Shown here one piece after another: positions 21,001 to 30,000 of a DNA stretch of 64,000 nt. The first letter of the stretch is position 1. Each line of letters starts with the position of its first letter. The DNA is from Bacteriovoracaceae bacterium. Lineage in GTDB: Bacteria > Bdellovibrionota > Bacteriovoracia > Bacteriovoracales > Bacteriovoracaceae. The stretch is from the NCBI GenBank assembly GCA_048270185.1, contig JBLWTJ010000002.1:64001-128000 (forward strand), given 5' to 3'. Made by a program: the position numbers.

Positions 21001-24000
21001 TACACACTATGCTTAGATCAGATTGACATCGACTTCCATCAACAATCCAGACCATATTATGATAAAACTTCTCTCTTGCATGAATCTCTTCCTCATCTAA
21101 TCGAGAATGTTGTATTTCTATAAAGAAACCATCTGGCCTTTTAACATCTGCTATATGCTTTTCGCCATTTGCATCGAAATGTACAACCTCTTGCCATTCT
21201 TCATCATAATGATTCTTCCAAGCTCTATGCCATTCACTTTCTCGTTCCCACCAATCATCACATTCGTTTTTTGCTTTATGAGCCCAATGCCAGGCCATAA
21301 TTTTTCCACATTTGGCTATGAGTTCAGATTTACAATAAGAACAAACTCCTTTTAGCTTCGGGAGCGCTTCAGATTTTATTCCATCAACAAGTCCGAATTT
21401 CATTATTCGCTCGTTTTTAAAACTTTTATTAGTCTTCGAGCTTTTCCAGACTTCTGAATAATATCCATTTTAGGCTCTTTATACCCTATTCTTCCTGCAA
21501 CACGCTCTAAAGTAAGATTTGTCTCACCCAACTCTAGATACTCATTACTTGAGTTTTTACTAGTGTGAATGACACTTATTTTCACAAAATCTTTCTGACT
21601 ATCTACTTCGACAATATGATCGAGCTTTATATCTACTATCTGTTTAAAGATAGAATTCCATCGTTTACTATTTTCAATATAAAATTGTGTAAAAGATTTA
21701 TAATTTCGAAACGGAGGATAATTACTTTTATATAAAGAGAAATCCGAGAATAATGCGGTATAAAATGGTTCACCTAACTTATAACTATCAGGTAGTGAAT
21801 CTGAAATACATTGTAGATCATCTCTACGATTATTGATCTCAGAATCATCAATCATGACTATGATATCGGCTTCTTCTAGTCGACTTATAGGAAACCGTAC
21901 ATCTGCAAGCATCGAGTTTTTTGACTTATAACCAAAATACGCCGCCACTAGCTCATGAGCATGAGCTGCTTTTAACTTAATATCGTAATTTTCTTTAGTG
22001 AATGAGCGCAGTGAATCTGCACATTTTTTTGAAATCTCTTGAATAGACATCTTAAACTCCATTAAACGAGCTGGACTTAAATTTAGTTGTTATGTGCGTT
22101 CAATACAACTAAGCCAGCAATTTAATAAAGTATAAAAGTGCTTCTTAGAGTTTATATAACTATCGTCTTTTCGGGCGCACACACCTGAGGCAAATCGACT
22201 CCTTGGATCAAGGTATCTGATTCATATAAGATGAGCAAGTTAATTTTTTACTAACCGCTAGTACATATAATGGTGGACGTTCGACAATGCTAGACGAACT
22301 CTGCGACTACGCGAATTATGTGCCTGTTATCATTACTCATTTCTTCAACAAACCCATTCAAAATTCGGAACTTTTGCGGAAACTGTACTTAGAAAAAGAC
22401 CTTTCTAGCTATGAAATTTCAAAATTAACAGGCTGGCCTCGCTCTTCAATAAGTGATGCAACTCGTGCCCTTGGATTCAAAAAAGAAGAAGTGAAAGCAC
22501 CTACTCTTCGCTTCGGTGAAAAGCTTATTGGGACTACGCGTGTAGTTCATAAAGGAGAACAAAAGGTAATTGAAAAGATGATTTCCCTTCGAGAGAAAGG
22601 TTATTCATTCAAGCGAATCTCTGAATACTTAAACGATAAAAACATACCAACTAAACTCGGAGGGTCATGGTACCCATCTACAGTAAAAGACATTGTTAAG
22701 CGAGAGCTTAAGAAAAGGGAGGCATATCATGCGTGCGATAATTGAGATAATTCTTGCGATAATTTTTACAGTGATTTCAGGAACCACGGTTTTGAATCTT
22801 TCAAGTAAGGCCATAAAAAAGGAAGCCATCATTAAAGTTCATATGGGACTTCCTTCGTTAGAGAGCTTTACTAAAAAGATGACGAAGAAATAGCCTCAAA
22901 AGCTAAAGGATCAGTGTGTTTTCTTTATTTGATGACATCTTCATTAAAGAGACTGAAATAAATATCCAAAAAACAGTGCGGACAGTCATTGCACCAACGG
23001 TTCTCATTTCATAGGGATTTCCTAAGAATATATGAACACCAAAGGCTATAAATACTAATAATGTTAATGTTGCTAAAGCAGAGGATAACTTTAAAGCCCA
23101 CTTGGTTCTTAAGCTGATACCTATTCCAGATATTACATAGAAAAATCCTGCAATAAAATTAAACCAGAGTACAAATGGGACATACTTACCAGCAAATTCT
23201 TTTCCATCTATACCACCAAAAAGAGCAAATCCCCCAGACTTTATCGTCATAACTCCAAATCCTATAGCCAGTAGGCCAAGAATTAAGACGATAATTTTTT
23301 CTCGTTTATGATTCACTTTAAAAACTCCACATGAAATTCAACATCACCCAAGGGCTCTATATGATGAGGAACTTGAGGCTCAACAACTCCAAATTTTTCA
23401 GGTGTTAGCTCAATAGCCTCTTGTGGTTCTGTCTCTATTGTATATAGTAATTTCCCTTTGGAGACACAAATTTTTCCCCATGTACCTTCTTTTGTTGTAT
23501 GCGCCTTTAGCAGCCCAGCGGGGACAGTTTTTTCATTAAAGTCAGGGGTGCGTTTATATACGCTTACATTTTCGGGTAGTTTCTTCATATCTTACTCCAT
23601 ATAGGTTTTTAAATATTCATCTGTTTTTCCAACAGTAAAATATAAATTAAGAGCTGTTATTTCATTTAAATAGTTTAGAGCTATAACTTGTAATGAACTT
23701 CGATCAAAGGTCTCTTGTAGCTTTACATAGTCTAATGTCGTAATCCTTCCGTTTTTAAACCTTTTATTTTCAGCTTTCAAAATACTAAGCTGCTGCTTTT
23801 TCATTTTTTCAAGGAATACGATCTGTTCTTTATTGGACTTTACTTTTTCTTTTAAAGTCTTAACTCCCTTAACAAGCTGAAGCTTTGTTTTATCTCTCCT
23901 ATAGTCGGCTTGCCTCTTACGACTCATCGCTGTCGCTTTAGCAGAATCGTTTTTCTTGGTTCCTAAGTCAAAGTCCCAAGTGATACCAGCAAACACCTCA

Positions 24001-27000: not shown

Positions 27001-30000
27001 ATAATCATGCTTCCAAAGACCGTGAAAGGAATTCCAAAAGCAGTCCAAAAGGCTGGCTTTCCACCAAGAAAGTAAAAAAGTAGTATTAAAACTAGAGTAA
27101 ACCCTATCAAGCCATTATTTTTAAGAAGTGAAAATTTACTTCTAGCATTATCAGAAACATCATTATTTAGCTTATAAGATACTCCATCGGGGAGTTCTTT
27201 ATTTTGTAAAAACTCTTTAATTTTATCAGAGACTTTCAATTGATCTACGCCGCTTCTGATGGCCACTAATATTGAAGCTCCGCGATTTCCATTGTTACGA
27301 ACAATGAGTTTTTCATCTTTTGGTCTATAGTTGATTTCAGCAACATCACTTAAATAAACACCTTGCCCGTCGGGAGACATTCTAATTACAGTATTTAAAA
27401 CATCTTCTGCTTTTTCGTATTTATTGAAAGAAACAATCTTTTTTTGAGACAAAAAAGATTCCAATGTTCCACCAGTTCCTACTTGATTTCTAGTATTGAT
27501 GGCAAAATATATTGAATTGAGATCAATTTCTTTTTCTTGGGCCTTCTGCGCATCTACTTCAATATGAATTTCTTCATCGGGCAGTCCAACCAAAGTAACA
27601 TTTGAGACACCTGATACTTTACGAAGATCATTTTCTATTTCATGTAAGGCATTTTTTAAGTGGTTATAATCTCCAGCAAAGGCAATCTCCATTATTGGGC
27701 GATCTTCTGTAGTGACACTGGTAATAATGGGTTGTCCTTCAATATCTGACGGAAAATCATCAATTTTGTCTACTTCAGTTTGTATGTCTGACAAAAGGTC
27801 TTTAAATTGAAGCTCGTTGAGATTATCGTCTGCGAATATTGTTACCCTCGAAACGCTTTCAATTGAACTTGAACGATATTCTTTAATATTTCCAATTTCA
27901 GCAATCTTCTCCTCTAACTTCGCTGTGACATTCAATTCAACATCTTTTGCCGATGCTCCCGGGTACTTAGTCACAATAACAACCTGGTTCATTGAAACCC
28001 CAGGAAAAGCTTCTTTAGGAACTTTGTATATAAAGTAACCACCAATAATAAAATTGAGTGCCAGAATAAAGTTCACCAATATTGGTCTTTTTATAAAATA
28101 AAGGGTTAAATTTTTCATTAATCCACCTTCTTAATTCCTTGAATCACAATCTTCACTCTTTGCTCTATGGCCTCGTCTGTCGTAAGTTTTTTAGTTATTG
28201 CTTTCAGTCCGACATCGAAGACTTTATTTACTCCCAATTGGCCTAGGACTTCAGGTATTAAATTAGAAAGACCAATACTTCCTGCAATCTGCGTTAGAAT
28301 TAAAGGAATGGGAGCATCAATGATTTCACCTGATTTCTGGCAAGACCTTAGAGTTTTTACCAGAATCATAAAGTGCTTTCTCATCTTAGATTTAGCGAAC
28401 TTTTGAACGGCCTTTTCACCATTCAAAATATCATTGAGTAAAACTAGAATCAGGTGTCTGTTATCCCGAGCAAACTTGCCCATTAATGTCAATTGAAGCT
28501 CTAGGGTGCTAAGCTTTGATTCAGCTTCGACTAGCTCAAAGTCGGCTAAAAAGCTTTCGTATATATCCATTAGGATTTTTTCAATAAACTTATCTTTACT
28601 ACCAAAATGGTAGTTAAACATTCCAAGGTTAACCCCGGCCTTATCGCAGACTTCACGGACGCTAAAATTAGATGCTCCCTTTTTAATTAAGAGCTTACGT
28701 CCTTGGTCAAAAAGTTTTTTATCCGTATGGGTAGATTTTCTAGACATCTATTTTCCTCATTGACTTTATTACACACTTGTATAATTATACGACCGTATAG
28801 TAACTAATGCAATAATAAAAACTGGAGATGATATGAAACGTGCCACTTTACCCACATTACTGATATTACTTACTTTTTCAGCATTTTCTGCTGACAAGAT
28901 ACCTACTCTTAAAAGTGTTATGCAGGGCCTTGGAGATTCAATGGATGAGCTTAATCGAGGAATTTTTTATGAAGATTTCAAAGTCATAGAAAAAGCAGCA
29001 TTTAAAGTGGCCAATCACCCAAAGCCAAAAACTCAACTTCCTACAGTTATAAAAACTCTCAATATTAGAATGCCCAAGTTTAAAGCTTTTGATTCTAAGG
29101 TTCATGATTCAGCAATGGAAATTGTAGAATTCGCAAAGAAAAGAGATATGGACAATATTCTTAAGAAACATAAAGTAATTATGAACAACTGCGTTGCTTG
29201 CCATACTCAATTTAGAAGTGAAATTTCAAAAGCATTAGCTGAGTAGAAAGCTCTAAATATGAATTACACAAGGTAATACAATATATTAGGTCACATAAAA
29301 TTTATTCAATTTTAAACTTAAATATGCTAATATAAAGAGATGAGTTTTATAATCTTAAAACACATTCTACACCGAAATACAGCTTCACTTGTTCAAGTGG
29401 TTAAATAGCTGCTTTTAACCTAAACTCACATAAATAATTATTTAAAAATGGAGGTAATCAGTGGAAACTGATAGAATTTTAATAACAGAAAAAGACTATT
29501 TAAGACTTACAAATTTAATGGGAAGTAATACAAATCACAATTTTGAAGATTTAGAGATCGAGTTAGATCGAGCTTCTATAATTTCAGATCATGAAGTCCC
29601 TAACGATCTTGTAACTATGAATTCAAAAGTTAAGTTTTTAGATTTAAAAACTAATAAAGATTCAATTATTACTATTGTATATCCACAAGATGCTAATACA
29701 AATGAAGCTAAGATTTCAATTTTTGCTCCTTTGGGCTCTGCTCTAATTGGTTTAAAGAAAAATCAAAAAATAAACTGGAAGTTTCCTAATGGCAAAACAA
29801 AGTCTCTAAAGGTTGTAGAAATACTTTATCAGCCAGAGGCTGCAAAGGATTGGCACCTCTAAGAGGTTATAAATGTCTATTAAGTTTAAAGCTATAATAT
29901 TGGCATTACTAATCGCTGTATCGAGCGGTAGTATATATTTCTATCTTGATAAACAAGTAGTCGAAATTGGTTGGGTCTATGGACAACTTCTCGATTCAAG

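Follow-up and report, generated by a model that had tools for sequence, protein, structure and literature searches.

The window, a 64,000-nt stretch of the genome of a marine predatory bacterium, carries on its reverse strand a gene cluster built around one long ORF, which encodes an RND permease, a signal-peptide-like segment and an outer-membrane factor (OMF). The features of the locus are:

28118..28747, (-) strand: TetR-family regulator P0002, 209 aa (Pfam TetR_N, 1.1e-09)
23592..28118, (-) strand: whole fused ORF P0001, 1508 codons plus stop
25071..28118, (-) strand: RND permease part of P0001, residues 1-1016 (ACR_tran, PDB matches, hydropathy)
24981..25070, (-) strand: internal signal-peptide-like segment of P0001, residues 1017-1046 (KKFKGNKK / AAHLSVLLIPLLIGF / HTQDVKA)
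23595..24980, (-) strand: predicted mature OMF part of P0001, residues 1047-1508 (two Pfam OEP matches, AlphaFold2, Foldseek)
23313..23588, (-) strand: DUF1971 / TehB-N-like protein P0003, 91 aa (Pfam DUF1971, 4.1e-26)
22903..23316, (-) strand: conserved protein P0004, 137 aa, putative four-TM membrane protein (TM count read by eye from the sequence)

The stop codon of P0002 and the ATG of the pump gene overlap (TAATG), and a Shine-Dalgarno motif (AAGGTGG) is present. P0003 starts 3 nt downstream of the pump and overlaps P0004 by 4 nt. Seven of 10 fused loci have a TetR homologue directly upstream, as has the split locus L031, where pump and channel are separate genes; the position of P0003 is likewise filled in L021, L022 and L023. 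P0004, for which Pfam and NCBIfam profile searches returned no match, has homologues that follow the pump in L021-L024 and, as two frames, in L031. Public records for the fused genes bear the label 'RND permease' only, which leaves the channel half hidden in annotation.

A permease and an outer-membrane factor in one reading frame

The genome-wide survey's note had described a single 1508-residue ORF combining pump and channel, and this was borne out at 23592..28118 on the (-) strand. The first part is, as the note had it, a complete AcrB-type RND permease (residues 7-1008): Pfam ACR_tran spans exactly these residues (E = 7e-157, profile positions 4-1019 of 1021), and PDB matches to 6vej, MexK, MexB and AcrB extend across residues 3-1008 (E = 1e-68 to 1e-57), 6vej and MexK being the nearest in sequence among solved permeases. 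Twelve TM segments and two large periplasmic loops make up a full-length RND architecture; 11 of the 12 expected TM segments reach a Kyte-Doolittle 19-mer value of at least 1.5, the exception being TM11. NCBIfam subfamily models score 439 bits, far under their curated cut-offs (1250), and therefore assign no named equivalog. We mapped onto TM4, TM10 and TM11 of the pump what we take to be the proton-relay sites of AcrB, namely the TM4 Asp-Asp pair, the TM10 Lys and the TM11 Arg. Of 18 fused sequences, 17 have the TM4 motif VDDA and all 18 the TM11 Arg (RLRP/RFRP); TM10 reads V-N-D or V-N-N, with Lys in none of them (positions placed partly through the 6vej alignment).

Three methods agree with the earlier assignment of a complete TolC/OprM-type factor to the C-terminal part. 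Pfam OEP matched two stretches (4.9e-20), and AlphaFold2 modelled this half with a pLDDT of 87.3 and a pTM of 0.79. Foldseek aligned the model with TolC, CusC, SilC, CmeC, OprM and VceC (E = 1e-15 to 1e-12), the first five being the closest solved channels by fold, and gave a probability of 1.00 against more than 30 solved OMF chains (TM-score 0.6-0.76). A single-sequence search of the OMF half against the PDB found no match. The modelled OMF becomes ordered 2-3 residues past the predicted cut; about 35 helical residues run up to the β-strands, from which helices of 68-71 residues lead down. The mature N-terminus is thereby placed at mid-height of the modelled channel, far from the inner membrane, as in canonical OMFs. 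Canonical OMFs contribute four β-strands per protomer to a 12-stranded trimeric barrel. DSSP assigned six strands per protomer in the monomer model, four of them in the first repeat and two in the second. The OMF half also has some 40 additional residues, which occur in distant stand-alone relatives as well.

A database search with residues 960-1508 retrieved 17 fused proteins (1465-1515 aa, 46-93% identity) and two unfused RND proteins, independently confirming that full-length fused homologues exist. With residues 1040-1508 alone, exactly one stand-alone OMF was found (P0005, 490 aa, 53% identity). Among 201 sampled genomes of the taxonomic family, 10 have the fused frame open, as does one further sampled genome, G276, from another family. 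Values of dN/dS were 0.02-0.05 for the RND half, 0.08-0.09 for the OMF half and 0.11-0.37 for the linker; by these sequence comparisons, both halves are under purifying selection and the linker is relaxed but constrained.

The seam and its predicted processing

The segment joining the two halves begins at residue 1017, after 12 TM helices, with a basic n-region (KKFKGNKK, K1017-K1024). A hydrophobic core (L1028-F1039) and a c-region (HTQDVKA) ending at A1046 follow, and signal peptidase I is predicted to cut at A1046|E1047. The cut site given in the survey's note ('/EEK') stands, whereas its numbering, with the signal at ~1013-1038 and the OMF from ~1040, is roughly eight residues too early. 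All 18 fused sequences keep Ala at -1, V, A, T or L at -3, and a net charge of +1 to +6 before the core, upholding the note's picture of a Lys/Arg-rich stretch and a variable core before an invariant Ala. Position +1 is occupied by E, Q, D, K or N throughout, and a lipobox Cys at this position is absent from all 18. Judged by sequence, the channel is of the TolC-like, non-lipidated type.

By a crude h-region measure, the core spans 12-15 residues in 14 of the 18 sequences and 18-23 residues, nearer to an anchor, in four homologues (P0018-P0021). Its Kyte-Doolittle hydropathy in the window gene is 2.32 as a 13-mer and 1.27 as a 19-mer, sub-threshold for a 19-residue TM helix. The seam is also the least conserved stretch of the protein (mean share of the commonest residue 0.42, against 0.84 in the RND and 0.68 in the OMF half). 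It aligns with the signal peptide of the stand-alone P0005 (MKK..VYA|KD), the only relative in which the segment is N-terminal. The host genome encodes two signal peptidase I enzymes, and its stand-alone OMFs bear similar A-x-A type signals without a lipobox. Taken as a whole, the seam looks like a cleavable Sec/signal peptidase I signal peptide, conserved in anatomy and drifting in sequence.

We propose, at a probability of roughly 0.7, that the gene encodes a natural polyprotein of RND permease and OMF that is cut by signal peptidase I at the internal signal. One chain of 1508 residues would leave the ribosome, and its RND part would insert co-translationally, the 12th helix ending in the cytoplasm. 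The basic stretch would then stay inside; the core L1028-F1039, acting as an N-in/C-out signal, would engage SecYEG anew and send the C-terminal half of 462 residues across the membrane. Cleavage after V-K-A1046 would yield a 1046-aa RND permease still carrying the signal segment, now a short 13th membrane segment at its C-terminus, and a free, non-lipidated TolC-type factor (E1047-E1508) that would insert in the outer membrane as a trimer. Both products would form a TetR-controlled efflux pump whose strict 1:1 synthesis matches a trimer:trimer stoichiometry. Export through a 13th segment and cleavage by signal peptidase I had already been suggested in the survey's note, and every computational test that we ran agrees with it. 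We know of few bacterial precedents for cleavage of a signal placed behind 12 TM helices. Bradyrhizobium japonicum FbcH, the cytochrome b-c1 precursor, is a polytopic inner-membrane protein followed by an internal signal and an exported partner that signal-peptidase-type cleavage separates; in contrast to the channel proposed here, the partner, once released, remains at the inner membrane, and FbcH is unrelated to the window gene in sequence and function.

The adaptor question

The window's pump resembles AcrAB-TolC and MexAB-OprM in its full RND permease, TM4 Asp-Asp, TM11 Arg, OMF α/β-barrel fold and TetR regulator. Unlike in those systems, pump and channel form one ORF joined by the putative internal signal peptide, and the operon lacks an adaptor (MFP) gene, none being recognisable for this pump genome-wide. 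The TM10 Asn-Asp and the six β-strands per modelled OMF protomer may likewise set it apart from canonical pumps.

The survey's note had reported no MFP gene in the operon, and our profile search likewise found no MFP-family match among P0001-P0004 and nine other neighbouring window ORFs. Nor did adaptor families match any of 31 ORFs from the fused loci L022-L028 or the scanned 102-aa downstream ORF of L031. When the whole genome was searched in six frames with TIGR01730 and PF16576, the only matches were a CusB-like adaptor next to a different RND gene, an HlyD protein beside ABC genes, and mini forms. The latter are adaptor-like ORFs of 137, 224 and 223 aa, located between OMF and RND genes of the host genome, whose similarity to TIGR01730 is confined to its C-terminal part (E = 0.03, 0.006 and 2e-13, respectively); tblastn with these forms detected no copy near the fused gene. 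In genome G287, which has seven RND genes, five adaptors were detected, which indicates that adaptor detection works in this phylum. None of them lies within 70 kb of an RND gene, and all sit in other operons: one adjoins an MFS gene, one ABC/ABC-2 genes and two MacB genes, while the fifth, a 583-aa ORF, has no recognised transporter next to it.

The missing adaptor had been regarded as specific to this operon. The unfused relatives contradict this view, related cassettes across the phylum sharing the trait. The nearest distant relatives of the window's OMF half (18-26% identity) are found in unfused OMF-RND cassettes of Bdellovibrionota, at L006 in the same genome and at L034-L040 in seven others. 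These comprise a TetR regulator and an OMF gene abutting the RND gene, and an adaptor gene was looked for and not found. Their RND partners fall in a different RND clade from the window's pump, and since the OMF gene precedes the RND gene, they are unable to fuse in the window's manner.

The polyprotein may nevertheless be cut and still require an adaptor that is encoded elsewhere, perhaps a shared one, or is too divergent or too small for recognition, which would make this an ordinary tripartite pump with an unusual gene organisation. We consider this a serious contender, with somewhat less than an even chance. According to a review (PMC8277102), all characterised RND-OMF pumps use adaptors; the mini forms, barely seen by profiles, show up in the same genome; and in six loci the pump is followed by P0004, the small conserved membrane protein. 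Against it stand the neighbour scans, the whole-genome matches confined to other transporters and mini forms, the negative tblastn result, and the placement of all five G287 adaptors in other operons. The pump might work through direct contact between RND and OMF, or with a partner that escapes recognition. More tentatively, and in our estimate rather doubtfully, RND pumps of Bdellovibrionota could be two-component systems with direct channel docking and no periplasmic adaptor, made in this Halobacteriovorax lineage 1:1 from a single signal peptidase-split precursor, with a 13th C-terminal segment left on the pump.

Proposed cleavage, probable fission and related fusions

Quite improbable is an uncut chain, in which 13 inner-membrane helices would carry a tethered TolC-like half that reaches the outer membrane or stands as a periplasmic chimney. 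The ORF is continuous, and the four homologues with cores of 18-23 residues, by the crude measure, would suit such an anchor. However, small residues at -3 and -1 are kept in 18 of 18 sequences within the otherwise most variable segment, the core falls below the threshold for a 19-residue TM segment, and one lineage has returned to two genes, with the same segment serving as an N-terminal signal peptide. Because the modelled fold starts at mid-channel within 2-3 residues of the cut, the ~10 tether residues would be far too short for an uncut chain to reach the outer membrane. The survey's note had offered one chain sitting in both membranes as its alternative outcome, which these points disfavour.

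We find it very improbable that the channel is made from an internal start codon, with the long ORF as a read-through by-product. Met occurs within the n-region of 9 of 18 fused homologues, and codon 1016 is ATG in L021 and L022 and TTG in L023, where it looks like a decaying former start. In the window gene, however, codon 1016 is ATA and the 32 codons around the n-region contain no ATG, GTG or TTG, as is also the case in L025 and L026, so that in these genes the OMF cannot be produced on its own; moreover, no stop codon ends the RND frame, and the fused chain is therefore made in any case. An error of sequencing or assembly, or a pseudogene in decay, is hardly credible as an explanation of the fusion, since, although one base in an A-run is all that separates fused from split form, the same frame is open in the independent family genomes, in G276 and in 17 database proteins, and dN/dS is well under 1 in both halves.

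The split form mentioned in the survey's note does exist: the stand-alone OMF P0005 lies directly downstream of the 1023-aa RND protein P0024 on the same 16,303-bp contig (L031, a Pseudobdellovibrionaceae MAG). Its RND protein is 84% identical to the fused P0014 and its OMF 53% identical to that of the window, with TetR upstream, the same small membrane protein downstream and no adaptor gene evident among its ORFs. The difference is that RND stop and OMF start overlap as ATGA inside the A-run, giving two genes, and that the seam segment serves as a conventional signal peptide at the N-terminus. Phylogenetically, both unfused RND proteins, P0024 and P0023, fall among the fused forms (AU test rejecting fused monophyly, p = 8e-8), a placement unchanged with independent outgroups. 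The OMF-only tree also nests the split form, and fused monophyly is not rejected there (AU p = 0.083). This nesting suggests that the split form is probably derived, by secondary fission, and not ancestral as had been supposed. The fusion itself may have arisen from a translationally coupled RND-OMF gene pair that lost its stop/start overlap, and the fused form could revert to two genes through a one-base change.

Neither is the fusion unique to the lineage, as had been thought. In public data, P0033, P0034, P0035 (from an Oligoflexus MAG), P0074 and P0176 also place RND first and OMF second in 1498-1523 aa, and the seams of P0033, P0034, P0074 and P0095 combine basic and hydrophobic stretches with a small-x-Ala motif. 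Their RND halves form the sister clade of the family described here; their OMF halves share only 20-26% identity with that of the window gene. A literature search found no description of such RND-OMF fusions.

If the chain is cut, proteins for two membranes would come from a single precursor separated by the general signal peptidase. Such a polyprotein route is common in viruses and, to our knowledge, hardly documented for bacterial envelope machines. The family would also represent pumps without the adaptor that textbook models hold indispensable for coupling an RND permease to a TolC-like channel. If such pairs really suffice, they would provide a natural test of direct pump-channel docking and a minimal system for structural work.

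A pump and a channel in one reading frame

The gene at window positions 23592..28118 (minus strand) holds 1508 codons in one ORF, confirming the fused pump-channel protein (P0001) described in the genome-wide survey's note. Pfam assigns it a full ACR_tran domain at residues 7-1008 (7e-157; profile positions 4-1019 of 1021) and, in the C-terminal third, OEP in two stretches (4.9e-20). Against NCBIfam, RND subfamilies matched below threshold only (439 bits vs a cut-off of 1250), and the TolC match was faint. Close homologues carry the label Halobacteriovorax in public records, the public names being 'efflux RND transporter permease subunit' and, in IMG, 'AcrB/TolC'. 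The host genome comprises 3.35 Mb in 30 contigs and is 95.9% complete.

The pump ATG, preceded by AAGGTGG, overlaps the stop codon of an upstream TetR gene (TAATG). A DUF1971 gene begins 3 nt past the pump gene and is in turn overlapped by 4 nt by the gene for a 137-aa protein (P0004), which reads as a four-TM membrane protein. We considered P0004 as an accessory subunit and set it aside, as it belongs to no Pfam or NCBIfam family and its atlas clusters are annotated 'hypothetical protein' only. Of 10 fused loci, 7 have TetR immediately upstream, as does one locus where pump and channel are separate genes. A nitric-oxide stress cluster (cytochrome c'-like, NnrS, hemerythrin-domain and NorB-type NO reductase genes; window 28833-34201) adjoins the pump operon. 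Among the other fused loci, a YgbA_NO gene lies beside L025, cytochrome bd oxidase genes beside L024, and near L026 a 330-aa ORF (L026:7944-8936, minus strand) with an ADP-ribosyltransferase-exoenzyme-type domain (Pfam PF03496, 7.8e-09).

Residues 960-1508, searched against 5.8e9 proteins, recovered 17 fused proteins (1465-1515 aa, 46-93% identity); two unfused RND proteins also came up, their match confined to the final 11% of the query. The seam-spanning residues 900-1508 matched one open frame in 10 of the 201 genomes sampled from the window's taxonomic family. These 10 include the genome that holds the window, one with the gene in duplicate, and three cases cut by a contig end. Against three relatives, pairwise dN/dS was 0.02-0.05 for the RND half, 0.08-0.09 for the OMF half and 0.11-0.37 for the seam. 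The fused homologues, the open frames across genomes and the low dN/dS rule out an error or a decaying gene. The distribution is patchy: the same seam-spanning query found the fused gene in 0 of 12 other genomes of the window's genus, and of 401 genomes sampled across the phylum, six have the protein family in fused form and one as a split pair.

Residues 3-1008 match the solved permeases 6vej, MexK, MexB, MdtF, MdtB and AcrB (1e-68 to 1e-57). The window protein was aligned with the 17 fused homologues (18 rows, also used for the seam); the TM4 Asp-Asp pair is kept in 17 rows and the TM11 Arg in all 18. TM10 (window 25341-25391, minus strand; residues 913-929) reads G-I-V-V-N-D-S in most of the family and V-N-N rather than V-N-D in two rows; Lys occurs in no row at the position where AcrB carries its proton-relay Lys.

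The OMF half matches only 332 of 1.84e9 representative proteins at E<=0.001. A phmmer search of the PDB gave no true sequence match for it, and its fold was assigned only through an AlphaFold2 model of residues 1013-1508, built from a 43-row alignment and confident (pLDDT 87.3, pTM 0.79). Foldseek matched the model to TolC, CusC, SilC, CmeC, VceC, OprM, OprN and MtrE (probability 1.00, E 1e-15 to 1e-11; TM 0.6-0.76 at 10-14% identity). The signal segment is disordered, order starting 2-3 residues past A1046; about 35 helical residues then lead up to the β-strands, and a long arm is built of helices 71 and 68 residues in length. The strands of the first repeat fall in this region:

Window 24510-24749, minus strand: OMF first-repeat β-strand region, residues 1089-1168 of P0001 (model residues 77-156)

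Four strands in repeat 1 and two in repeat 2 give six per protomer in the model, against four in TolC. The inner turns of the repeat-1 strands are short and the outer loops long and of low confidence. In the alignment, the extra approximately 40 residues are common to distant stand-alone OMFs.

The seam and the fate of the chain

By hydropathy, the 12th hydrophobic segment of P0001 spans about residues 983-1009. It is followed by the basic stretch KKFKGNKK (1017-1024), a hydrophobic core (L1028-F1039) and HTQDVKA up to A1046, after which the sequence continues EEK. The survey's note places the predicted cut at the same point, before EEK, with residue numbers about 8 too low. Net charge over the 15 residues ahead of the core is positive in all 18 rows (+1 to +6); position -1 is Ala and -3 is V, A, T or L in every row, and +1 is E, Q, D, K or N, with no Cys in any row. 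By a crude definition, the core is 12-15 residues long in 14 of the 18 rows and 18-23 in four. Its Kyte-Doolittle hydrophobicity is 2.32 as a 13-mer and only 1.27 as a 19-mer; the RND TM segments, taken as 19-mers, reach at least 1.5 in 11 of the 12 expected, TM11 lying below. Conservation is also lowest in the seam, where the commonest residue has a mean share of 0.42 vs 0.84 in the RND and 0.68 in the OMF half. Such drifting sequence with a fixed physico-chemical form is the pattern expected of signal peptides.

We favour, at a probability of roughly 70%, cleavage of the fused chain at the seam as a polyprotein, as had been proposed. Five lines point this way. The -3/-1 motif is kept in an otherwise drifting segment, and the hydrophobic core is short. 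The genome encodes two SPase I genes, and its stand-alone OMFs use A-x-A signals similar to the seam. The one stand-alone close relative of the OMF half, P0005, has a homologous segment as its normal N-terminal signal peptide (MKKTTLL...VYA|KD). Finally, tether geometry appears to bar an uncut chain from the outer membrane: in the model, counting 1.5 Å per helical residue, the mature OMF N-terminus sits about 50 Å below the barrel and about 50 Å above the channel tip, beneath which the RND headpiece measures roughly 70 Å. About ten tether residues would be too few to reach the inner membrane, so without cleavage the chain could not bring its TolC-like barrel to the outer membrane. The alternative raised in the survey's note, one uncut chain sitting in both membranes, is unlikely. 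After cleavage, the signal segment would remain on the pump as a short 13th, C-terminal membrane segment, a consequence that the survey's note does not draw.

Separate synthesis of the channel from an internal start was rejected, since codon 1016 is ATA and no ATG, GTG or TTG occurs in the 32 codons around the n-region; L025 and L026 likewise have none there. Codon 1016 is ATG in L021 and L022 and TTG in L023, which looks like a fading former start.

Split and distant relatives

The split form mentioned in the survey's note does exist. In 5.8e9 proteins the OMF half has a single close relative that stands alone, P0005. This lies on a MAG contig directly downstream of a 1023-aa RND gene (P0024), itself preceded by a TetR gene; the P0024 stop and P0005 start overlap as ATGA within an A-run, where one inserted base would fuse the two. 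In the RND tree, the fused clade encloses both P0024 and P0023, the second unfused protein, whose contig is 3.7 kb long. Holding the 18 fused rows together cost 118 log-likelihood units (AU p=8e-8), and the placement was unchanged with unfused RND genes of the window's genome and of others as outgroups. The OMF tree nests P0005 too (SH-aLRT 94); on that tree alone, the AU test did not reject fused monophyly (p=0.083). Because it is nested on both trees, the split form is best read as a secondary fission. It may instead be an assembly error in its MAG. At the same locus (L031:9470-9884), the P0004 homologue matches in two different frames and may itself be frameshifted.

The next-best matches of the OMF half, P0033, P0034, P0035 (labelled Oligoflexus) and P0074, are also fused (1498-1520 aa, 20-26% identity), and a partial protein, P0095, matches as well. 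The four seams inspected (P0033, P0034, P0074, P0095) share the basic / hydrophobic / small-x-Ala layout. A search with P0034 as query returned 3 proteins only. The RND halves of P0033, P0034, P0035, P0074 and the further fusion P0176 form the sister clade of the window's family, which also holds two lone RND genes that may have lost their OMF half:

L029:8548-11565, minus strand: lone RND gene, 1005 aa, no OMF or adaptor neighbour
L030:2194-5235, plus strand: lone RND gene, 1013 aa, no OMF or adaptor neighbour

Just downstream of the pump operon lie a 152-aa ORF with an HTH and a fragment of the serine-recombinase 'Recombinase' domain (window 22287-22745, plus strand) and a CoiA-like gene (window 20375-21403, minus strand). 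The fused gene shares 96% identity with its counterpart in G021, a genome coded as another genus, and 86% with that in G276, from another family. G021 carries two fused copies, L021 and L022, which over residues 900-1508 share 96% and 87% identity with the window gene; the second has no upstream TetR and a MarR gene two genes off. The recombinase fragment and CoiA-like neighbour, the absence from the 12 congeners and the identity to genes elsewhere together hint at horizontal transfer.

Missing adaptors and what is new

As reported in the survey's note, the pump operon has no adaptor gene: no adaptor family was found among P0001-P0004 and nine other window ORFs. Nor was any found among 31 ORFs from L022-L028, or at the split locus, where the scan covered only a 102-aa downstream ORF; L021 and L041, syntenic with the window and with L022, were left out. 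A 370-aa secreted ORF downstream of the L027 fused gene was rejected as an adaptor, showing no MFP signal in Pfam or NCBIfam. Six-frame searches with TIGR01730 and PF16576, run on the entire genome, recovered one CusB-like adaptor beside another RND gene and one HlyD (the TIGR01730 match at C1:801k), which adjoins ABC genes and was discarded as a pump adaptor. The remaining matches were lipoyl domains of an E2 enzyme (including the TIGR01730 match at C1:1358k, a 2-oxoacid dehydrogenase E2) and weak ones on small ORFs.

A full adaptor adjoins only one of the genome's nine RND genes. At two further loci (L003 and L006) OMF is directly followed by RND, and at three a small secreted protein (137, 224 and 223 aa) lies between them, with a C-terminal adaptor-profile match only:

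L001:9287-9700, minus strand: small secreted protein between OMF and RND
L002:8875-9549, minus strand: small secreted protein between OMF and RND
L005:5174-5845, plus strand: small secreted protein between OMF and RND

The 137-aa protein is a homologue of the 224-aa one and has homologues in 45 of the 121 genomes sampled from the taxonomic family. Together with relatives in L047-L076 the three make up a group of 126-240 aa proteins that match only the last 60-150 adaptor-profile positions; in many of them the N-terminal part is rich in His and the C-terminal part has a conserved ...DSCAH or ...YGHSH motif. Members of the group resemble truncated 'mini-adaptors', probably belonging to metal-efflux pumps.

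Distant OMF relatives elsewhere in the phylum lie in adaptor-less TetR + OMF (464-509 aa) + RND cassettes in 7 of 7 loci (L034-L040), where OMF and RND are 0-7 nt apart. In L036 the RND gene is broken into two frames; in the other six loci its product has 1040-1075 aa. In five other genomes, no TIGR01730 match (E<=1e-5) fell within 45 kb of any of 31 RND matches (30 genes). Across Bdellovibrionota, as seen in L034-L040 and in G129, G222, G287, G305 and G395, RND genes adjoin OMF genes and no recognisable adaptor genes. The complete genome G287 has five detectable adaptors, all away from RND genes: one in an OMF-adaptor-MFS operon, two in OMF-adaptor-MacB, one in adaptor-ABC-ABC2, and a 583-aa ORF with no recognised transporter beside it. 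Four of its seven RND genes adjoin a same-strand OMF gene, three without room for an adaptor between, and for a fifth an OMF gene lies on the opposite strand at a distance of about 1.3 kb. On this evidence adaptors can be recognised in the phylum, yet they do not accompany RND genes.

Taken singly, the components of the fused protein and its operon (RND permease, TolC-type OMF, Sec signal peptide, TetR regulator) are all of kinds already known. Their combination appears new: one precursor would serve two membranes by way of an internal signal, probably cleaved and retained by the pump, and there is no adaptor. Neither a natural RND-OMF fusion nor an adaptor-less RND-OMF cassette is described in the portions of the full-text literature searched, including those of PMC8277102 and PMC3924187. 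For bacterial polyproteins with an internal signal, the literature searches likewise gave no paper; one bacterial precedent is the cytochrome b-c1 of Bradyrhizobium. The pumps may work without any adaptor, or they may work with one that is unrecognised; the absent adaptor is the more surprising question.
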